Shown piece by piece: positions 11,580 to 57,083 of a stretch of DNA of 64,000 nucleotides; positions within the stretch are counted from its first letter, which is position 1; every line of letters starts with the position of its first letter. The notes below the pieces were generated by a model. It did not search any database, was not told the DNA's origin, and was given only the letters and a program-made list of their open reading frames with translations. The stretch lies in the NCBI RefSeq assembly GCF_054482525.1, contig NZ_CM137006.1; one strand, written 5' to 3'. The position numbers and the translations under genes are program-made.

Positions 11580-11656
<77 letters not shown>

Positions 11657-11688
11657 TCACCGTACTGCTTTATTTCATCAAATTTGAT

Positions 11689-11765
<77 letters not shown>

Positions 11766-11798
11766 TCACCGTACTGCTTTACTTCATCAAATTTTAAT

Positions 11799-11875
<77 letters not shown>

Positions 11876-16197: not shown

Positions 16198-16403
16198 AAA
16201 AAAAAGCACCGCAATTAGGCGGTGCTACATTAATCACTATGGACAGACAGGGTAAATGTACAGGAAGTGAAAAAAGGTAGCTTTGCTACCATGGTCTGAA
16301 TCGCAGACCAATTGCAAACACAACAACACAACATCACAACCGTAAGCCAAAAGTTCACCAGAACACGCATTCCGATAAAACTTTTCGTTCCGGCTCAGGA
16401 AGT
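16198..16403 (-). ncRNA. gcvB: GcvB small regulatory RNA (Hfq-dependent, represses amino-acid/peptide transporters)
   Basis: 206-nt sequence recognised (5' ACTTCCTGAGCCGGAACGAAAAGTTTTATCGG... 3' GCACCGCCTAATTGCGGTGCTTTTTTTT on minus strand); G/U-rich target-binding regions; intrinsic terminator; divergent from gcvA. Confidence 0.9.
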
Positions 16404-18999: not shown

Positions 19000-19731
19000 T
19001 CAGGCTGTTACCAAAGAAGTTGCAACCTGGCGCTCATCAGAAATAATGTGCGTTACCTCATCCAGATGCCCGATGCGGGCTTCCCCTGAACGATTAAATT
19101 TACTTTTATCAATCAATAACAACGATTGCGCGGCGCGTTTTAATAGCATTGATTTGTAATCAGCGTTGATGGCATTGGAGTCCCACAGTGCGCCGCTGCT
19201 ATCGATCCCTTCACAAGAAAAAATAAACAGATCGATTTCCAGCGATTTAAGTTGGGAAATCAGCGAGGGATTGACGTAACAGCCATATTTGCGCTCAAGT
19301 GTGCCACCGGAACTGATCAGTTGAATGCGTTCGCGTTTACCGAGTTCATGGCAAATCGGATGGCTATTGGTGAAGACCTGAATGTTGATGTCAGGCAACT
19401 GGCGTGCCAGATACCAGCAAGTTGAACTGGCGTCTAAGGCTATCACCATCCCTTCTTCAATCCACGCGAGCGCCTCGCGCGCGATATCTGCTTTATGCGC
19501 ATAATGGCTTTTCAGCCGGATGTGAAAGGGATCGCCACTGTCTTGATTTTGACGGTGGATATATTTAGCGCGTCCATGATTGCGCAGAATTTTACCCTGC
19601 GTCTGTAATTCATTGAGATCGCGACGAATGGTTTCTTTACTGACCTTTAGCTGTTCAGAGAGAGCTTCCGTGGTCAGGCTGGTATGGTTCAGCAGCAGGT
19701 CGACTATCGCTTGCTGGCGTGCCGCTTTCAT
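19000..19731 (-). CDS. fucR: DeoR-family L-fucose operon activator
   Basis: 243 aa from ATG at 19731; N-terminal HTH (DeoR); last gene of fuc cluster. Confidence 0.9.
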   Translation of the reverse strand: MKAARQQAIVDLLLNHTSLTTEALSEQLKVSKETIRRDLNELQTQGKILRNHGRAKYIHRQNQDSGDPFHIRLKSHYAHKADIAREALAWIEEGMVIALDASSTCWYLARQLPDINIQVFTNSHPICHELGKRERIQLISSGGTLERKYGCYVNPSLISQLKSLEIDLFIFSCEGIDSSGALWDSNAINADYKSMLLKRAAQSLLLIDKSKFNRSGEARIGHLDEVTHIISDERQVATSLVTA

Positions 19732-19788
19732 AATTTTCACCCCATCATTCGATAACCGCCCGCGTCATGCGGGCGTACCGGTATGAGA

Positions 19789-20211
19789 TTACGGTGTTAC
19801 CCCTTTTTTTAAAAGAATATTCCCGTACTTCGCTCGTTCGCCTGTGATAACGATCGCAAAGGCTTTTTGCGCCCGTTCATAAAACGCAAAACGATTGATG
19901 CGGATGATGTCAGGACAGGGGGCTTGTAGTGAAAGCGCATTACGATAACGTCGTTCTACTTCAGGATCGAGAGTGTCACCTTCTACCGCCGCCATCATCA
20001 CCAGCGGCGGGGCATAACTGTCCAGTTCAAATAACGGGATTATTGCCTGGAGCAAGTCGCTCACCAACAGGCCATCAGCGCGGATCACCTGCGGTCCCAT
20101 CGAATGGGCGGGAAAGTGAGCATCGGAAAAAATAATTTCATCTCCATGTCCCATCTCTGCCAGCACTTTCAATAGTTCGGGAGAAATTAACGGCGAAATT
20201 GTTTTCAGCAT
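19789..20211 (-). CDS. fucU: L-fucose mutarotase
   Basis: 140 aa; RbsD/FucU family; between fucK and fucR. Confidence 0.92.
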
Positions 20212-20212
20212 T

Positions 20213-21631
20213 TCACACTTCCTCTATAAATTCAGGTTCAGTTTGCGGGTAGAAATAACGGTACTGATAATGAATCTGTGCGCGGGCTTCTTCCGGGCTG
20301 TTAAATTCCCCTACGCCATACCAACCGAACAGCGCAGCTCCTGCGACGGTCGTTTCGGCGTCGTCGAGAACTTTTACCGGAATATCAAGCATATTGGCTT
20401 TAATCTGATTCCACAATGTGTTGCGACTTCCTCCACCGACTAACAATAATTCAGAGGCTTTAAAGTGCCCGATTTTTTCCAGCATCTGTAGATTGCGCTG
20501 TAATTGCGCAGTTAACCCTTCCAGCGCCGCGCGATAGAAATGCCCCCGCGTGGTATTAAGCGTCACTCCTTGCCAGCCAGCGTTCTGACACGACAATAAA
20601 TCACACTGCATTTTTACGCCATCCGCGCCAGGCGCGATCAGACGAGCTTCTTCAATCAACATTTGCCAGGGTGTTTCAGCCGTCCAGAACAGTTTTCTCA
20701 CCCATTCCAGCACGCCGGATGCCAGCCATTGCATACCTGGGTTATACAACCCTGCCTGGCTATCCAGTTCGCAGGTGGAACCGGCGTACTGACTTAACAG
20801 CGAAGTATCAACCTGGGCGCTACGGACCATTAAAATTTCCCATGTACCGGAAGAGAGCACGGGTTCATTTTGTTCGGCACCAGCGCCAAAAAGGGCGAAC
20901 TGGGTATCGTGACCTGCGGAAATCACCGGTATGCCAACGGGTAAGCCGAGCATTCCTGCGGCGCTGTTCTGTAACGTACCAATCTGTTCACCCGCTTCCA
21001 CCAGACGAGGGAAGAGTCGGCGTGGAATACCGGTGGCTTGTAAAATTTGCGGACTGAAATCGCGTTGCTGGATATCCAGCATCTGGCTGGTTCCGGCCAT
21101 CGTGATATCAGTAGTGAATTCGCCGGTTAAACGGTGGTTAATCAGCGACGAAATAAAGAGCCAGGCGTGCGCGCGTTCCAGCAGTTGTGGATGATTTTCT
21201 TTCAACCACACCAACTTATATAACGTATTGAAACTAAAGGCTCCGACTCCAGAAATAGCCTGCAACTGCTGTGCGGAGATCAACCGTTCAATATTGTCCA
21301 TTACCGCTGCTGTTCGCGGACATTTCCAGCTAATGATCGGATAGAGCAGATTGCCTTGCTTATCTACCAGAGCGCCATCCACACCAAAGGTGGTGACGGC
21401 GATACCGCGGATGTGGCATTCAGTCAGTTCACTATTGATTTGCCGACAGCAATCAGCAAAGCGTTGCAAAATGGCGTCTAAAGACCACTGGTGCCAGGTG
21501 GTGTTTTCCATCGCGATATCGCTGGCATTAGGCGTTGAGGCGCGGGCAACAATTTTTCCCTGCCGATTAACCGCGATGGCCCTGACATTGGTCGCGCCAC
21601 AGTCGAGTACCAGGATAACTTCTTGTTTCAT
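20213..21631 (-). CDS. fucK: L-fuculokinase (FGGY family)
   Basis: 472 aa from ATG at 21631 with AGGAG Shine-Dalgarno; ORF track extension to 21661 starts at TTG and is probably not used. Confidence 0.92.
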
Positions 21632-21648
21632 AATCGCTCCTGCAATAT

Positions 21649-21674
21649 AGCCGGATAACATTGCTTATCCGGCT
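21649..21674. repeat. REP-like perfect hairpin in fucI-fucK intergenic region
   Basis: AGCCGGATAA-cattgc-TTATCCGGCT; a second GC hairpin GCCCGGT...ACCGGGC lies at about 21695-21718. Confidence 0.55.
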
Positions 21675-21739
21675 AACCACTCTTGCTTGTTCAGGCCCGG
21701 TAGCCGGAGCGACCGGGCATCACATCAGGGAGTAATGTA

Positions 21740-23515
21740 TTAACGCTTGTACAACGGGCCGTAGTTCTGGCAAGCGCGGTAATCCTGGCCTTCAATATCC
21801 ATGCCGTGCGCGGCCCAGGCAGAAGGACGATACACTTTGGTCTCTTCAACGTTGTGCATACATACCGGGATACGCAGCATGGAGGCAAGAGTGATAAAGT
21901 CTGCGCCAACGTGGCCGATGGTCAGAACCCCGTGGTTAGCGCCCCAGTTCGCCATTACCGAGTACACATCCGTAAACGGCCCTTTACCGGTGAGGCGCGG
22001 TGCAAACCAGGTGGTTGGCCAGGTTGAGTTGGTGCGTTTGTTGAGGATGTCATGCACATCCTTCGGCAATTCCACGCTCCAGCCTTCCGCGATTTGCAGT
22101 ACCGGTCCCAGGCCTTTGATGATGTTGACTCGAGTCATAGTGAACGGGACGCCGCCTTCGGTAAGGAAGCGAGAAGAGTAACCGCCGCCACGGAAGTATT
22201 CGTGGATCGCCGGGCACCATTCGGTAGCGGCGAGGCAAGCGTCAGCCTCTTGCTGAGAGATTTCCCAGTGCGGCTTCATCGTCGGGTTACCTTCGCTGTC
22301 GCGTTGTTTACAGGAACCGTCCAGCGCAGCAGAACCGGAGTTGATCAAATGGATGATGCCGTGTTCTGCCAGTCCGTCCAGTTTATGCCCCGTTACACGC
22401 TCAATTGCTTCTGGTGACCAGTAGGTACGCACATCGGCAAATACCTGAGCGGTGCCGGTGAGCTGGTGACCCATTAGCATTGCCACGCCGTTAAGACTGT
22501 CGTTTTCGGTCGCCACGACAAAGGGTTCGCGCACGCCATTCCAGTCAAATGAACTGTTAAGGATCGCTTCGGCGGTGTCGCCATTGGGATATTGATCGGT
22601 CCAGTGACGTTGTCCCTGGAAGCCCGCAGCGATGGCGTTGTAGCCAAGTGATTCTTCCACGCGACCAATATCGGCCAGTTTGCTGTTGCCTTGCATCATG
22701 TCGCGGATACACATCGCCATCAGTAAACTTTCGCGCAGAACTGCGCGGCTTTGCTCGGCATTGCGTTGATACTGTTTGTTATTTTCATCTTCGCCATAGC
22801 GGAAGTTTTTATCAGCCCAGGCCAGCGCCATTTCCAGTTCGGCTTCGTCGTAAATCTTCTGATCGATACGGCGACGCAGTTCGGTCATATCCACCGCCTG
22901 GACTTTCATTCCCAGCCAGGATTCAAAGAAGTTGTGATCAACAATGGAACCGGCGATACCCATCGAAACGCCGCCCAGCGACAGATAGCTTTTACCTTTC
23001 ATACTGGCGACCGCCAAACCGGCGCGGGCAAAGCGCAGCAGTTTTTCTTCAACATCAGCAGGAATCGATGTGTCATCGGCATCCTGAACGTCATGACCGT
23101 AAATGGAGAATGCCGGGATGCCTTTCTGGCTGTGAGCTGCCAGAGCCGCAGCCAGGTAAACAGCGCCGGGGCGTTCAGTGCCGTTAAAGCCCCAAATGGC
23201 TTTCGGGCGGGTTGGATCCATGTCGATAGTTTCACTGCCATAGCACCAGCAAGGCGTTACCGTAATGGTGAGGCCTACATTCTGACTGCTGAATTTTTCT
23301 TCGCAAGCAGCGGCTTCAGCCATACCCGCGATACAGGTATCGGAAATGACACACTCGACGGCAGCTCCGCAGGCATGGCGCAGTTTCTCGGTCAGCAGTG
23401 CAGCCGTGGCTTTCGCCATATTCATTGTTTGTTCTTCAAGCGACTCACGAACACCCATGCGACGACCGTCAATAACCGGGCGGATACCAATTTTCGGTAA
23501 GCTGATTTTTTTCAT
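21740..23515 (-). CDS. fucI: L-fucose isomerase
   Basis: 591 aa; sequence and position. Confidence 0.95.
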
Positions 23516-23547
23516 TACTGATTCCTCACTTTATTCGGAAAATATGT

Positions 23548-24864
23548 TCAGTTAGTTGCCGTTTGAGAACGGAAACGGGCAAAGATAAAGATGACTGCGA
23601 AGCAGAGTGCCGGGATCAGTTCGGCAGTGGGGATGTTGCCCGCTGCGTCACTGACAAACCCCATGACCGGAGTGACAATACCGCCGCCAATAATGGTCAT
23701 AACGATGAAGGACGAACCGTATTTGGTGTCCTGGCCGAGATTTTTAATGCCCAGCGAGAAGATTGTTGGGTACTGAATCGACATAAAGGCACTGCATAAA
23801 GTCAGGGCTATTAAGCCCACATGACCGCCAGCGAAGGCTGAGATCAGGCACAGTGCCATAGCGATTAATGCGTAGGCGGCCAGGACTTTGTGTGGTGCGA
23901 AGCGACTGATGAGCCAGGTACCGGTGAAACGACCAATAAAGAAGCACACCATGGTTCCGGTTAAATAGTTAGCGGCAAAGCCTGCAGTCATACCTGGAAT
24001 TTCTTCTACAGCGTAGCGAATCAAATAGCTCCAGCAGGCCGTTTGTGCGCCGACATAGCAGAATTGCGCTAATACCGCCCAGCGCCAGTGACGAATACGC
24101 GCCAGACGAGAAAGCGATGCGGAGAACGATCCTTGTTTGGCGTCACTGTGATTATCACTCTGCAATGCCGGGAATTTCGTCAGCATGATCAGCAGGGCGA
24201 CCAGTAACACGATAGCCACGATGATCATATAAGGTGTCTGTACCGATAATACCAGGCTGTGTTTATACGCACTCAATTGCTCTGGAGACATTTTATCGAG
24301 AACGTCTTGCGATTGATGTGGCACGTTAGACAAAATAAGACTTTGCCCAAAGACAACCGCGATAATTGCGCCAAATGAGTTAAATGTTTGCGCAAGATTT
24401 AAGCGGAAGTGACCACTGCTTTCCGGCCCTAATACCGTAACAAAAGGGTTTGCGGCAGTTTCCAGACAACCTAATCCAGCTGCAATAATAAATAGGCCAA
24501 CTAAAAATAAGGTGTAGTTCATTATTTCTGCAGCGGGCCAGAATAATGCAGCGCCCAAGGCATATAAAAATAATCCGGTAATAATCCCTGCTTTATAACT
24601 GAGTTTTTTCATCAATATCCCAGCAGGGATTGGGATAATGAAATAACCAAAGTAAAAGGCCGATTGGATCAGGCCAGCCTGGAAATTTGTCAGCGTAAAA
24701 GCCTGCTGGAATTGAGGTAATAAAATGTCGTTAAGGTTATTGGCTACCGCCCAAAGAAAAAACAGTGAGCACAGCAGCGCGAATGGAATAATGTAACTTC
24801 TGCTTTGCCCTGCATCTTTATCTACCGCACGGTAACTCTGCGTTTGTATTGATGTGTTTCCCAT
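23548..24864 (-). CDS. fucP: L-fucose:H+ symporter (MFS)
   Basis: 438 aa, 12 TM helices; first gene of fucPIKUR. Confidence 0.95.
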   Translation of the reverse strand: MGNTSIQTQSYRAVDKDAGQSRSYIIPFALLCSLFFLWAVANNLNDILLPQFQQAFTLTNFQAGLIQSAFYFGYFIIPIPAGILMKKLSYKAGIITGLFLYALGAALFWPAAEIMNYTLFLVGLFIIAAGLGCLETAANPFVTVLGPESSGHFRLNLAQTFNSFGAIIAVVFGQSLILSNVPHQSQDVLDKMSPEQLSAYKHSLVLSVQTPYMIIVAIVLLVALLIMLTKFPALQSDNHSDAKQGSFSASLSRLARIRHWRWAVLAQFCYVGAQTACWSYLIRYAVEEIPGMTAGFAANYLTGTMVCFFIGRFTGTWLISRFAPHKVLAAYALIAMALCLISAFAGGHVGLIALTLCSAFMSIQYPTIFSLGIKNLGQDTKYGSSFIVMTIIGGGIVTPVMGFVSDAAGNIPTAELIPALCFAVIFIFARFRSQTATN

Positions 24865-25052
24865 AGCATCCTCTTAGGTTCAGAAGCTTAAGCACGTAAT
24901 CGGTTATGTTTTCAAAAGTGCAAAACCAGCGAGTTCGGGCTTCATATCAGTGAATATTTGCCTGTCAGAAATGAACTCATGGATTCATTTTCAAATAAAA
25001 AACGCTCTGTAATATGACGGCGGTCACACTTATTAGCTGGGAGGTGACTTTA

Positions 25053-25068
25053 TGTGACTACCATCACT
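25053..25068. promoter_or_regulatory. CRP-like site in fucPIKUR/fucAO divergent control region
   Basis: TGTGActaccaTCACt (TGTGA-N6-TCAC). Confidence 0.4.
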
Positions 25069-25410
25069 TTAATAATCGAAATTTCATGCCCGTTTCAGAA
25101 AATAAATCATAAAAAACACAAACCCGATGACCGTATTAATTGTTTGTGCCGAAAACGGGCATTTCTGGCGAGGGGGAATGGAAAAATGACCGTTTTGATA
25201 AATATTTTTAAGAGCGGTCATTTTTAATAGGGTTATAAAAAGAGAACTTGCAGTTATTTACTGTGATTAGTTGAACCAGGTCACAAAATATAAGCTTGTG
25301 AATTTCTTTCTGGTTAATCAGGAAGAAGATGGTGGGTAATTAAACGGCTAATTCAATAGTGTGAAAGGAACAACATTATTGCCCTGTTTTGAATCAGAGA
25401 GAGGTAGCTA

Positions 25411-27338: not shown

Positions 27339-29572
<2,234 letters not shown>

Positions 29573-29629: not shown

Positions 29630-30919
29630 TTAGCTGAACAGAGAGTAGAAGATTGCGGAGATTGCAATCAGACCCATCACGACAACGAATACGTTGCTGA
29701 TGTGACCGCTGTACTTACGCATTGCCGGTACTTTCTGAATTGCGTACATCGGCATCAGGAACAGGATCATCGCGATGATTGGGCCGCCCAGGGTTTCAAT
29801 CATACCCAGGATGCTCGGGTTCAGGGTGGCAACAATCCAGGTCGTTACCAGCATGAACAGCGCAGTGATACGGTTCAGCTTGTTGATTTCGATAGACTTA
29901 CCTTTACCACGCAGAGATTTAATCACCATACCGTTGAAGCCTTCACGTGCGCCCAGGTAGTGGCCGAGGAAGGATTTGGTGATAGCGATAATCGCGATAA
30001 TCGGAGCCATCCACGCGATAACCGGTGCGTTAAAGTGGTTAGCCAGGTAAGACAGAATCGAGATGTTCTGCTCTTTAGCCGCAGCCAGGTCTGCCGGAGT
30101 CAGGCTCAGTACGCAGCTGAAGACGAAGAACATTACGGTCAGCACCATCATGATGTGTGCGAATGCCAGGATCTTCGAGCATTTCTGTTCTGCCATATCG
30201 CCGTACTCTTCACGCTTCGCAACGGCGAAAGAAGAGATGATCGGAGAGTGGTTGAACGAGAACACCATTACCGGAATTGCCAGCCACAGGGTCATCCACA
30301 GACCGTTTCCGGTTGCAGATGCAGTGTCCAGAGACAGCGTTTCCAGTGCTGCGCCGTTCCACTGCGGGATCAGGTACAGAGCCAGCAGCATCAGTACGCC
30401 AACAAACGGGAATACCAGAATACTCATCGCTTTAACGATCATCTGCTCACCGAAGCGAACGATGGTCATCATACCCACGATCAGGATCAGCGACAGAATC
30501 GCACGCGGCGGTGGCGTCATACCCAGCTGGTGAGACATGAAGCTTTCAACTGTATTGGTGATTGCCACGCTATAAACCAGCAGGATCGGGTAGATAGCGA
30601 AGAAGTAGAGCAGGGTAATCAGTTTACCTGCGCCAATACCAAAGTGTTCTTCTACAACCTCGGTGATGTCTTCGCCCGGGTTTTTACCAGACAGTACGAA
30701 GCGAGTCAGGCCGCGGTGAGCAAAAAACGTCATCGGGAACGCAAGGATAGCCATGATGATCAGCGGGATCATACCGCCAACACCAGCGTTGATTGGCAGG
30801 AACAGCACGCCCGCGCCGATTGCCGTGCCGTAAAGGCCCAGCATCCACATGGTGTCTGTCTTGCGCCAGGCACTACGAGAGTCTTTCGACGCAATCGTGC
30901 TGGTTTGAGTCGTTTCCAT
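29630..30919 (-). CDS. sdaC: Serine:H+ symporter (HAAAP family)
   Basis: 429 aa; polytopic membrane protein upstream of sdaB. Confidence 0.95.
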
Positions 30920-31428
30920 CTATTTCTCCTGGAGGAATGCAAATAATTCAGCTTTTAGCCAGTTCAGCCCGGGAAGGTGCCTGACCGTAAAAATGAAATC
31001 TGTCTATCGGCGATGGCTTAATCATTTACCGCCGTAATAATTTGAGGGCGGAAAGATACACACAAGTTATGTATCTATCAGTGATCTTGATCCCAAATAC
31101 AATAATCTACTTGGAAGATAGATTATCCCAACGCTTTACTCTGTAAATCAAAAGTAAAAGAGAATTTAAGGGCAATATTTGCCCATTAAACGACATCTGA
31201 CTTCTTCCGGGGCGCGCAATATATGTAGGTTGAACTGAAAAAATCAATACTTTTAGTTAATCATGGCGATAATTTCTTTTTCATAGCGATAAAATGTGGT
31301 TTATGAAAATAGGTAAACGTTTGCGTTACAACATAAATTGTATGACATATTAACTGTAATGATATTTATCGCGTGAGGGTGGTAAGAAACATTCATATAA
31401 CAAATGAAATAAATTGATGGGTATGTGA

Positions 31429-31465
31429 CCAAAAACGAGAAAACCCGGCAACAAACGTCACCGGG
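31429..31465 (-). terminator. Putative ppnN terminator
   Basis: On minus strand CCCGG-loop-CCGGG followed by U-rich run; weak stem. Confidence 0.35.
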
Positions 31466-31474
31466 GGAGGGAGA

Positions 31475-32839
31475 TTACGTGCAGATTTCGTAGCAAGGGA
31501 TGTAGGCTGAGCCTGGCAACTTCATACGATGCTGGGCAACAAAACCCTGTAGCAGGTCATCCATACGACGCATAATCTCTTTATCGCCGTTGATTTTATA
31601 AGGACCAAACTCTTCAATAGCGCGAATACCGACTTCTTTTACGTTACCCGCCACAATACCGGAAAACGCACGGCGCAGGTCAGCAGCCAGCACTTCAACG
31701 GGTTGATCCGGGTAAAGCTTCAGATTTGCCATATTCTCGTGAGACGGCTCAAACGGCATTTGCAAATCTGGCGCAATGCGCATTGACCAGTTAAAGCTGT
31801 AGGCATCGCCTGTGTCGCGGCGATTTTCTTTCACCAGCGGCATCGATTTTTTCATCTGACGAGCGACTTCAGCGGCGTCATCAATGATGATGCGGTAATG
31901 GCGGCGCGCGTTTTCACCCAACGTATGCACGACAAACTCGTCCAGTACGCGGAAGTAGTCGGCGCTCTCTTTCGGGCCGGTGAGGATCAAAGGTAAAACC
32001 TGATCTTTGTTGGCCGGGTTCATTAAAATTCCCAGCAAATACAGCAACTCTTCTGCCGTACCCACACCGCCAGGGAAGATAATGATACCGTGAGCGATAC
32101 GGACAAACGCTTCCAGACGTTTTTCGATATCTGGCATGATGATCAATTCGTTGACCAGCGGGTTAGGCGGTTCAGCGGCGATAATCGACGGCTCTGTCAT
32201 ACCAATAAAACGACTGTCTTTGTAACGCTGCTGTGCGTGTCCGACCGCAGCGCCTTTCATCGGCGCTTCCATCGCTCCCGGACCACAGCCGGTGCAGATA
32301 TTCAGCTCACGCAGGCCCAGCTGATTCCCGACGCGACGGGCATACAAATACTCGTTTTCGTTAATTGAGTGCCCGCCCCAGCAGACCACCATATTTGGCG
32401 CTTCACCGACATGCAGTGCGCGAGCGTTACGCAAGATGGAAAAGACCAGGTTAGTGATGTGGACGGAGTTGTCGAGATTCAGGTTGGGAAAACGAACGGT
32501 GTTATGGATTTGCCCGTAAACGAAGAGAATGTCACGCAGAACCGCGAACAAGTTGGCCTGCAAAGCGCGAATAATTCGCCCATCGACAAAAGCCTCTTCC
32601 GGGGGATTAATCAGTTCCAGCTTTACGCCGCGTTCACGGCGCAGGACGTTAATATCGAAATTTTCAAAACGAGACAGCAATTCTTTGCTGTTATCGGTTA
32701 AACTACCGGAGTTCAGTACGGCAAGTGAACAGTTGCGAAACAGTTGATAGAGGTCGCTGCTGGCGGTGCGTTTAAGCATATCCACTTCCAGCTGCGACAA
32801 CATATCCATGGAGCCAAGCGGGCTAATATGTGTAATCAA
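31475..32839 (-). CDS. ppnN: Pyrimidine/purine nucleotide 5'-monophosphate nucleosidase (LOG family, ppGpp-regulated)
   Basis: 454 aa; LOG-family motifs (GGGxGxxE-like [10 protein letters not shown]). Confidence 0.9.
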
Positions 32840-32950: not shown

Positions 32951-33799
32951 TTATTGCCGAACCAGTCTTGTGGTCGATGGGACAAAATCGCTATTACTGC
33001 GCCACGGGTTAATGTCCAGACCGCCACGACGGGTATAACGTGCGTAAACGCTCAATTTCTCTGGCTGGCAGAAGCGTAACAGGTCATTAAAGATGCGTTC
33101 CACGCACTGTTCGTGGAACTCGTTGTGATGACGGAAAGAAACCAGGTAACGCAGCAGTTTTTCTCTGTCAATTTGGCGTCCACGATACTGAATTTGGATC
33201 GATCCCCAATCTGGTTGATGGGTGATCAGGCAGTTTGATTTCAGCAGGTGGCTGACGAGCGTCTCTTCTACTACTTTTTCGCCACTGGTGGCATTCTCCA
33301 GATAGTCAGTAGTGAATTCATAGTTATCGATAGTGATATCCTGGTCATCAATGCAAGTGCCATTGAAATGACCTATCGGTTGGCCTTCCAGTTCATCAAG
33401 ACGATATAACGCCACGCTAACCTTACCCTGGGCGCAAGTGCTTAAGTCGCGCTCCAGCGTCTGGCGCACCTCATCCCAGTTATTAAAACGCGTCTGGTTA
33501 AAACTGTTGAGATAGAGCTTAAAACTCTTCGACTCAATCAGATTTGCGCTGGTGTAATCAAGTTCAACATGACCGACGGCGACCTGCGGCAAACCTTTCG
33601 CATTCAGCCAGGAAAGTTCATACAGCGTCCAGATATCCGTACCGTGAAAAGGCAGGTTATCCGCTTTCAGACCCAGCGGATCGCGATTCAGACTACGCGG
33701 AACGCCTTGCAGTAGGCTGGCGTCATAGGTATCCCGGTAATCGGTTGATTTTCCAAGAGTCAGGCCCGCAAGTGCCTGATGGTTTGCATAAGAAGACAT
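32951..33799 (-). CDS. queF: NADPH-dependent 7-cyano-7-deazaguanine (preQ0) reductase
   Basis: 282 aa; two-domain YqcD-type QueF. Confidence 0.92.
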
Positions 33800-34619: not shown

Positions 34620-34988
34620 TTCGTCGACAGGGAGTCAGACAACGAAGTGAACATCAGGATGATGACACTTCTGAAGGACACACCAGGATGGTGTTTCAGG
34701 GAAAGGCTTCTGGATGAAGCGAAGAGGATGACGCAGGACGCGTTAAAGGACACCTCCAGGATGGAGAATGAGAACCGGTCAGGATGATTCGGTGGGTCAG
34801 GAAGGCCAGGGACACTTCAGGATGAAGTATCACATCGGGGTGGTGTGAGCAGGAAGCAATAGTTCAGGATGAACGATTGGCCGCAAGGCCAGAGGAAAAG
34901 TTGTCAAGGATGAGCAGGGAGCAACAAAAGTAGCTGGAATGCTGCGAAACGAACCGGGAGCACTGTGAATACAGTGCTCCCTTTTTTT
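34620..34988 (+). ncRNA. csrB: CsrB small RNA (CsrA-sequestering sRNA)
   Basis: About 369 nt with roughly 20 GGA-containing motifs (CAGGAUG/AGGA) in predicted loops; ends in GGGAGCACTGTGAATACAGTGCTCCC hairpin plus T7 terminator; 5' end approximate. Confidence 0.9.
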
Positions 34989-35033
34989 ATTCCTGCTATC
35001 CTTCGCGGCAGTTTTTCTTATTGAGGTTGCTTT

Positions 35034-51927: not shown

Positions 51928-52800
51928 TTACCAGCGACCGGACGCGCCGCCACCGCCAGAAGAACCGCCACCACCGCTAAATCCGCCGCCACTTGAGCCG
52001 CCACCGGAACCGCTGTTGTCTGAATGATAACTTCTACCAGATGCTTTTTTCTGAAGTACACATAAACAGGTAAAGACCATAATGGTGGTGAAAGTAAAAA
52101 AGAAGAAAAATACAGCAATGGAAAAAGTTTTATCGGAGAACAGGAATAAATCTAAAAGATAGATTGCTGAAATACAGACACTGCTTTTACATGCGCGACA
52201 AAAATTACTGCCTTGATGAAAAAACCAGAAAGGGAAGAACATCACTGCAAATACCCAAAAAATAGCAAAGTAGTAATGATCGCTGGAAGACGCTGATTCA
52301 CTTTCTGAAGGATTAGCCGAATATTGGTGTTGTGAAGTGAGTTGGTTATTCAAAGCGATTATAGCTAACTCTAATCCCTTAGCTAATTTTTGTTGTTTAA
52401 ATGCGGGTATCATGTTGCTACGGATGATATCTCCAGCCAGAGCATCGGTTACCTTTTCTTCCAGCCCATAACCTACCTGGATGCGGACAGTGCGATCCGA
52501 CCAGGCAACAATGATCAGTATCCCATCATTGCGTTTGGCATCTCCTAAACGCCAATTGTTAAAAACCCTTGTAGCATATTGTTCAATTGTCTCGTCTTTG
52601 GTTGTGGGAATAATTAATACAGCAATTTGTACTTGGGTATTATTGAAAATAGATTCTAACTTGTACGTCAGTTCTTTCTTTTCTTGTGAGTTTAAGCTAC
52701 TCGTAAGATCCGTAACTTGTTGCTGTAATTGTGGGACAATAGTTGGTTGGGCTGCAACAAAGGAACACACGAATGTGAATATTAGTATGAAATAGCGCAT
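51928..52800 (-). CDS. ygcG: TPM-domain membrane protein with Gly/Ser-rich C-terminal tail
   Basis: 290 aa from ATG at 52800; signal peptide, TPM domain, TM helix, [16 protein letters not shown] tail; ORF track extension upstream probably spurious. Confidence 0.8.
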
Positions 52801-53093
52801 TATAAATGTCTCATTAAATCTGGATAAATAAATTGACGGCGGCATCGGTAATTTGAGATTCGTTATAATTAAAAACGAACACAGAAAAAATAAGTATAAT
52901 TTTGGTGAATGTTTTTGACATGATTAAATCCCTTTACTTTATTTATTTCTGACATAATACGTTACCCCCTTTTATTATTAACGATCTGTTTCTCATTTTT
53001 CTTTAAACCTGCCTGTAACAGAATGTTAATAAGACATGATTGTTGTGGCAGGATCTGCAATAATTAACAATTATCCACTTCACAGAGAATGCT

Positions 53094-53765
53094 ATGCAGT
53101 ACCCGATTAACGAGATGTTCCAGACCCTGCAAGGTGAGGGTTACTTTACCGGCGTCCCCGCCATTTTTATTCGTTTACAGGGATGCCCGGTTGGCTGTGC
53201 CTGGTGCGACACCAAACACACCTGGGAAAAGCTTGAGGATCGGGAAGTTTCCCTTTTCAGCATTCTGGGTAAAACGAAAGAGAGTGATAAGTGGGGAGCA
53301 GCAAGCAGTGAAGACTTACTCGCAGTCATCGGTCGTCAGGGATACACCGCGCGTCACGTGGTGATTACGGGTGGTGAACCTTGTATTCATGATTTGCTGC
53401 CACTGACTGACCTGCTCGAAAAGAACGGTTTCAGTTGTCAGATAGAAACCAGCGGTACTCATGAAGTGCGTTGTACGCCGAATACCTGGGTCACCGTGTC
53501 GCCAAAGCTAAATATGCGTGGTGGTTATGAAGTATTGTCGCAAGCCCTGGAGCGAGCTAACGAAATTAAACACCCAGTTGGACGTGTACGTGATATCGAA
53601 GCACTGGATGAATTGCTTGCGACGCTGACCGATGATAAACCGCGAGTCATTGCACTGCAGCCGATTAGCCAAAAGGATGATGCCACACGTTTGTGCATTG
53701 AAACTTGCATTGCGCGTAACTGGCGTTTGTCGATGCAAACACATAAATATTTAAATATTGCCTGA
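53094..53765 (+). CDS. queE: 7-carboxy-7-deazaguanine synthase (radical SAM)
   Basis: 223 aa; CxxxCxxC-type cluster motif CPVGCAWC. Confidence 0.92.
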   Translation: MQYPINEMFQTLQGEGYFTGVPAIFIRLQGCPVGCAWCDTKHTWEKLEDREVSLFSILGKTKESDKWGAASSEDLLAVIGRQGYTARHVVITGGEPCIHDLLPLTDLLEKNGFSCQIETSGTHEVRCTPNTWVTVSPKLNMRGGYEVLSQALERANEIKHPVGRVRDIEALDELLATLTDDKPRVIALQPISQKDDATRLCIETCIARNWRLSMQTHKYLNIA

Positions 53766-54300: not shown

Positions 54301-55779
54301 TTACGCATTCGACCAGCTCTGGATCGAATCTTCATTCCCCAGCTCACCATGCATCACTTCATACGATTTTTTCAGGATCACATCAGTGTGCTTGGTTAGG
54401 TCTTTGAAAATGCCTTTATTCATCGCGTCGTAGCGTTTGGCATTGCTCTCAACAGGCATAAAGATATCTTTCACGCGAACCATTTTGTCGACAGCCGTTG
54501 CGTAATCCGGGTATAGCCCCAGACCTACCGCCGTATTAATCGCTGCCCCCAGACTTGCACAACCATTAATGGCGTTACGGCGTGCCGGAAGGTTGAACAC
54601 GTCGGCAAAAATCTGCATAAACAGATCGCTGTTCGAACCGCCGCCAGTAATGATCACATGCTTTGCAAAGTGATTCATTTCATTACACATATTGTCGTAA
54701 TTGTTCTTCAGCGTCAGCGCCACGCTTTCCAGTATCGAACGATATATCCATGCGTAATCCATGCTGGAATCAAAGCCGATCATAATCCCGCGTTTGTACG
54801 GTTCCCACGGATTGGTCAGCCAGTCCAGCACCGTCATCAGCCCATTACAGCCAGGTGGCACACTAGAGGCTTTCTTGTTGAGTAAATCTTCCGGTGAAAG
54901 ATCCTGCGCCCTGGCATCCTGAATTAACGACTCGCCTAACATGTCGCGTAGCCAGCTCACCGTCCACATGCCTTTGCGAATACCGTAACCTTCATACAGC
55001 AAGGTTTGCGGAATAGAAGACATAATCGGCCAGTACGCTACCGGATCTTTCGGCAGTGCTTTACCGTTCATCATCAGCGCGATGTAGGTGCCAAGAGAAA
55101 TCACCGCCGTTTCATCATCCAGTAATCCGGCTCCCAGAGCTTCTACCGGTTTATCACTGGTGGTACAAACAACCGGCAGCCCTGCTGGGAAATGTGTCGC
55201 CAGCGCGGCTTGAGGAGTGATATGCCCAAGAACAGTGCCCGGCATTTGCACATCAAACAGCATATGACGGGGGATATTAAACTTCTCCATGACTGCGGCA
55301 TCTTCACTCCATGCCCAGGTCTTATAATCCACCGGCCACTGACCAAAATAGTTGGCGATATTATCTTTAAACTCGCCGGTTAAGCGATGCGTCAGATAAC
55401 CTGAAAAAGAGGTGACATAGGCCACGTCAGGATTCGTATGTTCGTAAGGGCGTGTAACGCGTGCATCCTGCCAGCTGATCAACGGTGCAGCTGGCGTGCC
55501 ATCGGCTTTCAATAACGCACGGCAGCAACGGATGGATCCCAGACCAATACCGACAATATCGTCTTTATTCCCGGCAAACTGACTCATCAAATCGTGACCG
55601 GCAAAACATAATGATGCCCATAAATCGTCGTCAGGATGTTCTGCAGTATCGGCATCTGGCGTGTGCATCGGCTGTAATAAGCCTTTGCCTTCGCAAACCA
55701 CGTTACCTTCCAGATCGTACATCACCACTTTTGTGCTCTGACTTCCGCCATCAATCCCTATGATGTATTTTTTCGACAT
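54301..55779 (-). CDS. ygcE: FGGY-family carbohydrate kinase (glycerol kinase-like)
   Basis: 492 aa; FGGY N- and C-terminal domains; 26 nt after yqcE stop. Confidence 0.88.
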   Translation of the reverse strand: MSKKYIIGIDGGSQSTKVVMYDLEGNVVCEGKGLLQPMHTPDADTAEHPDDDLWASLCFAGHDLMSQFAGNKDDIVGIGLGSIRCCRALLKADGTPAAPLISWQDARVTRPYEHTNPDVAYVTSFSGYLTHRLTGEFKDNIANYFGQWPVDYKTWAWSEDAAVMEKFNIPRHMLFDVQMPGTVLGHITPQAALATHFPAGLPVVCTTSDKPVEALGAGLLDDETAVISLGTYIALMMNGKALPKDPVAYWPIMSSIPQTLLYEGYGIRKGMWTVSWLRDMLGESLIQDARAQDLSPEDLLNKKASSVPPGCNGLMTVLDWLTNPWEPYKRGIMIGFDSSMDYAWIYRSILESVALTLKNNYDNMCNEMNHFAKHVIITGGGSNSDLFMQIFADVFNLPARRNAINGCASLGAAINTAVGLGLYPDYATAVDKMVRVKDIFMPVESNAKRYDAMNKGIFKDLTKHTDVILKKSYEVMHGELGNEDSIQSWSNA

Positions 55780-55805
55780 GATTTTTCTCCTGTAATTTTC
55801 TGGAC

Positions 55806-57083
55806 TTACTTGCTGCTAGCCATAGCAGGGGCGCTATCAGCAGTACGAATTTTTTGGAACAGCAAAAAGGTAAAGACGATCACCATGGCAAGCGCCGCCA
55901 TGCCCATCAGCCACATATTGCGGTAGGCTTCTGCTGCGGGCAGGGTGTCTTGCCAGTGGCCGATAATTGGGTAAACGAAGACATCCGGCAGGAATCCAAT
56001 CACCGAACAAATACCTACCGTGGTGCCCATAATGTAAGACGGTGTTCTCGCTTCGCCAGGGCAGGCCCAGTACAGCCCGCGTGAGGCGTAACAGGTGAAT
56101 CCCAGAAGTAAAATCAGACCAATCCCCATCGCGACCGATTGCGGGTTAGAGTTCGTGATGAGCAGGGCAGTTAACGCCAGCAGGCCGAGTACGGAAAGGA
56201 TTTGGATCACGCGGGTAGGGGATTTCACTTTGCTGTAAGTGGTGATAATGCCGCCAAGCGGACCGCACAGTGCGCGGAAGATTTTGTTGATCACAATCCC
56301 CATGTAGCTCGCCGCCACCAGCGACATACCGTACATTTCGGTCAGATAGTTGGTGGAGTAACTCAGAATGGCGTAGATGGTGAAGACACCAAAAATCACC
56401 ATGCTGCAATACCAGGTGGTGCTGATGCGCAAAACGGCCAGGATGTCGCTAAGCTGGAATGACTGTTTTTCTTCGTTATTGGTATTGCGTAGGTTGTTGT
56501 TATCGCTAACAAAAAACCAACACAAAATGCCCAGCAGAATGTAAACCACACTGTAGATGATAATGACCGTTTTCAGGCTGGCGCTGTCATCCGGTGCAAA
56601 GCGAGAAAAGACCCACATGGTAAACACCGCCAGCGACATTACACCGACGCCGCGCAGCCCTTCCATCCAGCCCATAATTTTCCCTTGCTCGCTATGATCG
56701 CCCAGCAACGATGCGGCTTTAATCGACACCGACCACAGCATTAAAATCGTCGTTATCGCAAAGGCGACCTGAATACAGAGCATTACCCACAGCGGTGGAT
56801 ATGTTGCCATTAACAGACCCAGTAATCCGGTAATGATCATCGCGGAAGTAATCATTTTGCGGTGTGAAAATTTATCGGCAATAACGCCGCTGGGGGCATA
56901 AAGAATAATAGCCGCAATACCAAAGGTACTCATTATTAAACCTATCTCGGTATTGCTGAATCCCATAAATTTTGCCATGGGAATTTGATAAATATAACGT
57001 AAATAAGCCAGGTCGAAACTAACGCCGCCGCTAAAACTAATTATCGCGAGGGTTATCCAACGGCGATATGAGTTGTGTTGCAT
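55806..57083 (-). CDS. yqcE: MFS transporter
   Basis: 425 aa; 12 TM; first gene of yqcE-ygcE. Confidence 0.88.
   Translation of the reverse strand: MQHNSYRRWITLAIISFSGGVSFDLAYLRYIYQIPMAKFMGFSNTEIGLIMSTFGIAAIILYAPSGVIADKFSHRKMITSAMIITGLLGLLMATYPPLWVMLCIQVAFAITTILMLWSVSIKAASLLGDHSEQGKIMGWMEGLRGVGVMSLAVFTMWVFSRFAPDDSASLKTVIIIYSVVYILLGILCWFFVSDNNNLRNTNNEEKQSFQLSDILAVLRISTTWYCSMVIFGVFTIYAILSYSTNYLTEMYGMSLVAASYMGIVINKIFRALCGPLGGIITTYSKVKSPTRVIQILSVLGLLALTALLITNSNPQSVAMGIGLILLLGFTCYASRGLYWACPGEARTPSYIMGTTVGICSVIGFLPDVFVYPIIGHWQDTLPAAEAYRNMWLMGMAALAMVIVFTFLLFQKIRTADSAPAMASSK

Follow-up and report, generated by a model that had tools for sequence, protein, structure and literature searches.

The ppnN-sdaC spacer of Escherichia coli very probably combines the 3' end of ppnN with a composite sdaCB control region

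The long AT-rich spacer that separates ppnN (ygdH) from sdaC on the E. coli chromosome very probably combines the 3' end of ppnN with a composite control region for the sdaCB operon, which encodes a serine/H+ symporter and L-serine deaminase II. The length and AT-richness of the spacer can be attributed to the stacking of a terminator, at least five inputs from regulators, a promoter or two, and a long leader, and since these stacked elements suffice, no separate gene is required. The inputs extend beyond the CRP and Lrp named in a first-pass annotation of the same DNA, and include PurR, YieP, and ArcZ, plus the ppnN terminator. The sdaCB operon sets the rate at which E. coli takes up and burns serine, which bears on growth on peptides, on survival at glucose exhaustion, and on one-carbon and purine supply; with the inputs described here, one operon would integrate carbon (CRP), amino acids (Lrp), purines (PurR), an orphan regulator (YieP), and oxygen/stationary phase (ArcZ). 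The region is largely already known and the finding is an ordinary one: a long AT-rich gap near two gaps that bear small RNAs appears to hold no hidden gene, and the comparative results are of specialist interest.

Results and Discussion

The spacer and its boundaries

The spacer (30920–31474 of the window, by which we mean the whole 64,000-nucleotide stretch of DNA that was analysed) comprises 555 bp, from the sdaC start codon (ATG 30919–30917, minus strand) to the ppnN stop codon. The genes queF (32951–33799), ppnN/ygdH (31475–32839), sdaC (29630–30919), and sdaB (28205–29572) are all on the minus strand, and syd is on the plus strand. Because ppnN and sdaC, which flank the spacer, are co-oriented, the spacer must contain the end of ppnN and all of the control of sdaCB. 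Its earlier description as a region upstream of sdaC is correct in that it precedes sdaC, but the first ~36 bases (31439–31474) form the 3' end of the ppnN transcript.

The G+C content of the spacer is 0.371, lower than that of the four flanking genes (0.519) or of the whole window (0.510), in agreement with the AT-rich character originally noted. The length is unusual, as had been remarked, with the spacer being the second longest of ~42 gene-to-gene gaps in the surrounding 50 kb; the longest neighbouring gap (621 bp) contains csrB and another (350 bp) contains gcvB, which made the initial suspicion of a hidden RNA reasonable. No ORF of 60 or more residues lies within the gap, again as first reported, the longest internal ORFs being of 46, 43, 34, 34, and 25 residues; a 63-residue TTG ORF on the plus strand (30793–30984) starts antisense within sdaC and covers the first 65 bases of the spacer. 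Since chance predicts such an absence of ORFs in DNA of 37% G+C, it is of little informative value. The several short inverted repeats that had been observed are present, including the palindromes of the terminator, the PurR operator, and the CRP site, and a CCGCC/GGCGG palindrome; most of the inverted repeats in the spacer are identifiable sites.

Within E. coli the region is near-universal. A 755-bp query spanning the gap finds a match in 5,425 of 5,426 complete genomes (100% identity in a urinary isolate, 98.3% in K-12), and in 5,420 of the 5,426 at least 80% of the query is matched at 95–100% identity. In one genome (NZ_CP195448.1), the match is restricted to query positions 320–755, the ppnN-proximal part, which suggests a rearrangement or insertion disrupting the sdaC-proximal half of the spacer.

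For comparison across the Enterobacteriaceae we used 76 loci, namely those with both ppnN and sdaC on the fetched DNA, and a spacer alignment of 73 non-Escherichia loci together with the window. The adjacency of ppnN and sdaC is kept in all 76 loci, with a gap of 436–648 bp. A conservation profile of this kind, proposed in the first-pass annotation as a check, reveals conserved blocks, the strongest of which is the CRP site with its associated −10 element.

The ppnN terminator and the YieP/PurR module

Transcription of ppnN stops at an intrinsic terminator, as both the sequence and published term-seq data show. The 3' untranslated end of ppnN (31439–31474, minus strand) carries a hairpin (CCCGGTGACGTTTGTTGCCGGG, 31444–31465) and, after it, UUUUC; the transcript ends at 31439. 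In a terminator scan, the hairpin has the features of a rho-independent terminator, with a 9-pair stem that includes 6 G-C pairs and is followed by TTTTCTCGTT. The term-seq data assign to ygdH a 'primary' 3' end at K-12 position 2927709, equivalent to 31439 in the window (PMC7815308, supplement).

Downstream of the terminator lies a module with two sites that bind YieP and a single operator that binds PurR, the binding of both having been published. YieP site 1 (31391–31405, minus strand; ATTTGTTATATGAAT) and YieP site 2 (31336–31350, minus strand; ATATGTCATACAATT) exactly match sequences for which ChIP-exo, gel shift, and reporter scramble data have been reported (PMC8282354). The second site sits within an inverted repeat, I1 (31333–31369), and is covered by the rich-medium-specific occupancy peak upstream of sdaC that was assigned to YieP (PMC8282354). 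The first is poorly conserved outside Escherichia, and the ppnN-proximal third of the spacer, in which it lies, is not conserved.

The PurR operator (31311–31326; ACGCAAACGTTTACCT on the sdaC strand) corresponds to a ChIP-chip motif (PMC3159470, Table 1) that was assigned, at the same position, to sdaC-sdaB in a study stating that PurR regulates serine transport directly; in K-12 the bound region (2,925,514–2,926,070) had a log2 enrichment of 2.08 with adenine and 0.83 without it (PMC3159470). The box, AGGTAAACGTTTGCGT, has 2 mismatches to the palindrome ACGNAAACGTTTGCNT, and is the only match to ACGCAAACGTTTGCGT in the 64-kb window with up to 3 mismatches allowed. One base of the box is different in the K-12 allele, and 61 of the 76 loci have the PurR-like core AAnCGnTT. 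The box and YieP site 2, which together span 31311–31350, are 10 bp apart, and the box lies beneath the peak seen only in rich medium (PMC8282354). In the same work, an Lrp site was called the sole annotated site of the region, and the pull-down lysate had been pre-passed over a purR-promoter bait (PMC8282354); because of that prior passage, a contribution of PurR to the rich-medium peak could have been missed. The net transcriptional effect of the YieP/PurR module is only partly known.

A distal promoter defined by up-mutations

Further towards sdaC, a distal sigma-70-type promoter (31218–31247, minus strand) would drive sdaC without cAMP-CRP. It consists of a −35 hexamer TTGATT (31242–31247), an 18-bp spacer, a −10 hexamer TATATT (31218–31223), and a G+C-rich discriminator, scores 9/12 in our promoter scan, and would place the start of transcription near 31211, giving a leader of ~290 nt. 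Promoter-like hexamer pairs occur at chance level in this AT-rich DNA (2 found, 2.3 expected), and outside Escherichia and Salmonella the distal −35 hexamer can no longer be recognised. According to PMC10882989, no sdaC promoter had been experimentally verified, and the annotated one is a computational prediction. The same study describes PsdaC* up-mutations, selected in a cya mutant, comprising insertions of +A (K-12 2927924) and +ATT (K-12 2927928) that permit growth on serine and raise reporter output (PMC10882989). Because every length difference between K-12 and the window lies upstream of 31412, these positions transfer exactly to the window, where they fall at 31224 (+A) and 31220 (+ATT), in or adjoining the distal −10 box, a hot spot for mutation. 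The +ATT insertion converts TATATT to TATAAT; the +A insertion at 31224 produces no obvious improvement of the hexamer. The distal promoter is thereby shown to exist as a mutable promoter, and we infer that it is also active in the wild type.

Other promoter readings were considered. Two sigma-70 readings, TTAATG-N16-TAAATT in a conserved block (see below) and TTGATT-18-GATAAT (31151–31122), are inseparable from chance in AT-rich DNA. A sigma-54 reading of TGGTAGCCTTCGCGCC, which we rejected by eye, fits GG-N10-GC in other genera, with a poor −12 element and, in E. coli, a spacing that is off by one.

The CRP site, a predicted proximal promoter, and Lrp

The strongest conservation block of the spacer (31110–31025) consists of a CRP palindrome followed by ATGTATCTTTCCGCCC. 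The CRP site (31077–31098; ATTTGGGATCAAGATCACTGAT) has its core at 31080–31095, centred at 31087.5, and this core (TGGGATCAAGATCACT) matches TGTGA-N6-TCACA at 8 of 10 core positions. A scan for such cores alone performs at chance level across the window (26 found, 26 expected), and the site is convincing only because of its phylogenetic invariance, a CRP-like 15-nt core (regular expression T[GT]N[GC]ATCNN[GC]ATCAC) being present in 75 of the 76 loci. Control of sdaC by CRP (PMC10882989, PMC7213987) and by CRP and Lrp (PMC10882989, PMC2689187, PMC2965739) has been published, so that the initial proposal of multiple regulatory inputs, CRP and Lrp among them, is borne out.

A candidate proximal −10 element, TATCTT (31053–31058, minus strand), has its first base 29.5 bp from the centre of the CRP site. 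Of the 76 loci, 75 share exactly this distance; the hexamer itself reads TATCTT in 67, TACATT in 5, and TATCGT in 3. In class II CRP-dependent promoters, CRP is centred at −41.5, and a distance of 29.5 bp would place CRP at exactly this position if the start falls 7 nt past the hexamer. The predicted proximal start is thus near 31046, with a leader of ~127 nt; the sequence predicted around +1, CCGCCC, is rich in pyrimidines, unlike a typical start site. The CRP site and TATCTT together may constitute an ancestral class II promoter that would account for the reported CRP dependence. From geometry and conservation we infer a two-promoter model, of which the proximal start is the most provisional part: the CRP-dependent proximal promoter would be ancestral, and the distal one CRP-independent, weak, and recruited by mutation when cAMP is lacking.

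The proximal −10 element lies inside an inverted repeat, I2 (31051–31079; GATAGATACA...TGTATCTTTC), which lies next to the CRP site and is conserved as GATACAT-N9-11-ATGTATC. This repeat looks like an operator placed over the core promoter.

Lrp also binds AT-rich DNA upstream of sdaC, as found by ChIP (PMC2689187). The candidate site proposed here, directly upstream of the CRP site (31098–31112, minus strand; AAGTAGATTATTGTA), is highly conserved and is the only match in the region, albeit a weak one, to the Lrp consensus YAGHAWATTWTDCTR with up to 3 mismatches. We rejected the consensus scan as a means of locating sites, as it performs at chance level over the window (77 found, 81 expected). 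A genomic SELEX screen with the nucleoid protein Dan also recovered the sdaC spacer.

Fixed spacing and conserved blocks

In 56 of the 61 loci that carry AAnCGnTT, the PurR core lies 231–233 bp upstream of the CRP site (31095–31326 in the window), whereas the flanks are looser, with 117–144 bp between the −10 element and the ATG and a total spacer of 436–648 bp. Much of the sequence separating PurR box and CRP site is variable, and in Klebsiella the distance is held by compensating indels. Such fixed spacing would fit a phased nucleoprotein complex, for which Lrp is the obvious candidate.

Within the variable interval, a block reading ATGnTAGCCTTCGCGCCCrTAAAT (aligned to 31163–31200) is near-invariant in most non-Escherichia Enterobacteriaceae (loci L006–L082). 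In Escherichia, a hairpin specific to this genus (GGGCAA-ATA-TTGCCC, inverted repeat I3; 31170–31184, minus strand) replaces the TAGCCTTCGCGCC of other genera. It is conceivable, though on balance doubtful, that the 231–233 bp scaffold, the ATGnTAGCC... block, and the GATACAT...ATGTATC repeat represent one or more functional cis-elements that have yet to be described. If so, either an undescribed regulator or a phased Lrp complex would control serine catabolism throughout the family, and Escherichia would have been rewired.

The leader RNA and ArcZ

The sdaC leader, at least 127 nt in length, would comprise a 5' stem-loop, an A-rich tract, a covarying helix, and a ribosome-binding site that, according to published work, is occluded by ArcZ. 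The G+C-rich stem-loop (CCGCC-N13-GGCGG; 31029–31051, minus strand) lies at the 5' end of the predicted proximal transcript and is present in minimum-free-energy folds of the E. coli sequence. By eye, the 3' arm varies among other genera (GGCGG, GGGCG, GGGC, CGG) but can still pair with the invariant 5' arm once the register is shifted; because of these register shifts, the stem-loop cannot be scored by column covariation.

The leader helix (about 30942–30988, minus strand) pairs GTCAGG with CCTGAC in most genera, is weak in E. coli, where only TCAG:CTGA is present and is one register off, and is missing in the Klebsiella clade. When its six pairs are counted on alignment A1, 72% of cells are paired, compared with 58% in shuffled alignments (0 of 500 reach this value) and 23–40% when the helix is slid; the slid control somewhat favours the helix because the helix was derived from the same sequences. 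The covariation score is 0.341 versus 0.191, with double changes at all six pairs. Taken whole, the E. coli leader is not more stable than its shuffles (z = 0.38 for 147 nt, −1.72 for 312 nt), and RNAalifold on 51 leaders yielded almost no consensus structure, with just a 3-pair anti-Shine-Dalgarno stem.

The ArcZ pairing site (30921–30932, minus strand; CCAGGAGAAATA) spans positions −13 to −2 of sdaC, over the Shine-Dalgarno sequence. GGAG is invariant in the 51-sequence alignment, and CAGGAGA is present in most loci. We judged the pairing to ArcZ by eye, and sdaC belongs to the founding ArcZ targets. A sequence complementary to the ArcZ seed is found at the published position, with pairing at −13 to −2 of sdaC having been described (PMC11331407, citing Papenfort 2009) and over-expression of ArcZ having lowered sdaC mRNA in E. 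coli (PMC7213987). The arrangement is that of ArcZ targets controlled at the ribosome-binding site, STM3216 and sdaC, in which seed pairing at −13 to −2 masks the Shine-Dalgarno sequence and the leader carries an A-rich tract further upstream; in this comparison we found no difference.

One promoter or two

The main alternative to the two-promoter model is that all sdaC transcription starts from the distal promoter, at ~31211, with a leader of ~290 nt in which the CRP site itself is transcribed, at about +123; CRP would then serve, for example, as a roadblock, in DNA architecture, or in a role like that of a nucleoid protein. Three observations are in its favour. The distal −10 box, by virtue of the up-mutations, is the only experimentally supported promoter element of the region; the 312-nt E. 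coli leader folds somewhat better than its shuffles (z = −1.72, with 3 of 100 shuffles as good); and the indel-free 231–233 bp spacing from PurR to CRP could mean a single higher-order complex. However, CRP is reported to be an activator of sdaC, and we know of no mechanism by which CRP could activate from a site at +123. The up-mutations, moreover, come from a cya strain, a background expected to silence a CRP-dependent promoter and to favour recruitment of one independent of CRP. The distal −35 hexamer is unconserved beyond Escherichia and Salmonella, whereas the geometry of the CRP site and TATCTT is invariant. We therefore regard a single promoter as unlikely, and retain the model with a proximal CRP-dependent and a distal CRP-independent start.

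Short ORFs and small RNAs

The first-pass annotation also raised the possibility of a leader peptide or an unannotated small RNA; both are unsupported rather than disproved. In the first case, a translated short ORF in the leader, either one of 29 codons from 31196 or one of 25 codons from 31025, both beginning with ATG on the sdaC strand, would control sdaC. An AAGAAG sequence resembling a Shine-Dalgarno precedes the ATG at 31196, itself ~15 nt past the inferred distal start; in other genera the aligned codon is ATG or GTG and ...AFAP... comes after it, some of the changes being synonymous, such that the conserved block can be read as M-(V/L/I)-A-F-A-P. Neither E. coli ORF is conserved outside Escherichia, however: the 25-codon ORF is absent there, its ATG being replaced by ATT, and the 29-codon ORF is reduced to 10–13 codons in many genera. 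Among 29 distinct near-consensus variants of the conserved block, substitutions number 19, 18, and 16 at codon positions 1, 2, and 3, respectively, and Klebsiella has a frame-shifting 1-nt deletion with the downstream AAAT kept as DNA. The upstream Shine-Dalgarno sequence is missing in most genera, no terminator/antiterminator pair follows the ORF, and the Weaver 2019 ribosome-profiling preprint contains no mention of the locus. We rejected the upstream-ORF reading of the block on the codon-position statistics and the Klebsiella frame shift. The lack of a third-position excess, together with that frame shift and the mostly missing Shine-Dalgarno sequence, argues that the block behaves as a DNA or RNA signal and not as coding sequence, and we consider control of sdaC by a leader peptide very unlikely.

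Least probable of all is a small RNA, whether free-standing or derived from the 5' leader: although csrB and gcvB occupy long gaps nearby, the spacer is partly conserved, and the hairpin at 31170–31184, ~25 nt past the inferred distal start, precedes a U-rich stretch, that hairpin is Escherichia-specific with a tail broken by A residues, no Rfam family is found in the spacer (30000–32500 searched at an E-value of up to 10, and the whole window at the gathering score) with a library that does detect CsrB and GcvB elsewhere in the window, the ppnN terminator is the sole terminator-like site in our scan, past 31439 the term-seq tables give no further 3' end until the sdaC ORF (PMC7815308), the curated K-12 record has no annotation in the spacer, and conservation is highest at the CRP site and −10 element, that is, at DNA signals.

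Relation to known regulatory systems

The composite control region proposed here has counterparts in several known systems. With class II CRP promoters such as galP1 and melR, sdaC shares a CRP palindrome 29.5 bp from the −10 element, the lack of a good −35 hexamer, and reported CRP-dependent expression. In sdaC, the −41.5 position is predicted from the spacing, a CRP-independent promoter ~165 bp upstream also feeds the E. coli operon, and, as a further difference, a conserved inverted repeat fills the interval from −35 to −10. Promoters for amino-acid catabolism and transport under Lrp and CRP control (such as gltBDF, dadAX, and tdcABC) likewise have a long AT-rich region, a combination of global and specific regulators, and a conserved spacing of sites reminiscent of a nucleoprotein complex; to this, sdaC adds PurR and YieP, which would tie serine catabolism to purine supply. 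In most PurR targets the operator lies over the core promoter, whereas that of sdaC sits further upstream, ~107 bp before the inferred distal start and ~272 bp before the predicted proximal one. In common with the PurR regulon operators of purC, purMN, glyA, and other genes are the 16-bp palindrome ACGCAAACGTTTNCNT and in vivo binding that is enhanced by adenine (PMC3159470).

Other features of the window

Two further 3' ends in the sdaCB operon are recorded in the term-seq tables (PMC7815308). A strong one, at K-12 2929551 (window ~29597, minus strand), lies 25 nt upstream of sdaB, after the hairpin GCGCCGCTTTCGGGCGGCGC, and hence inside the operon; the other is ORF-internal, at sdaC +121 (K-12 2928350; window ~30798, minus strand).

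Elsewhere, CsrB gives a full-length Rfam match of 383 bits at 34632–34991 (plus strand), in the yqcC-syd gap; csrB has no feature in the RefSeq (PGAP) record of the identical strain and is annotated in the curated K-12 record. GcvB gives a full-length match of 199 bits at 16198–16403 (minus strand), adjoining gcvA. Three tandem tRNA genes lie at 11583–11875 (tRNA-Met in the annotation of the matching strain). In that annotation, the fucA-fucI stretch (~19070–25280) contains a LacI-family regulator, an FGGY-family kinase, and a three-gene sugar ABC transporter, with no fucP annotated, and a CRISPR repeat array and an IS200C transposase gene are annotated at ~55450–56030 and ~52700–53150.
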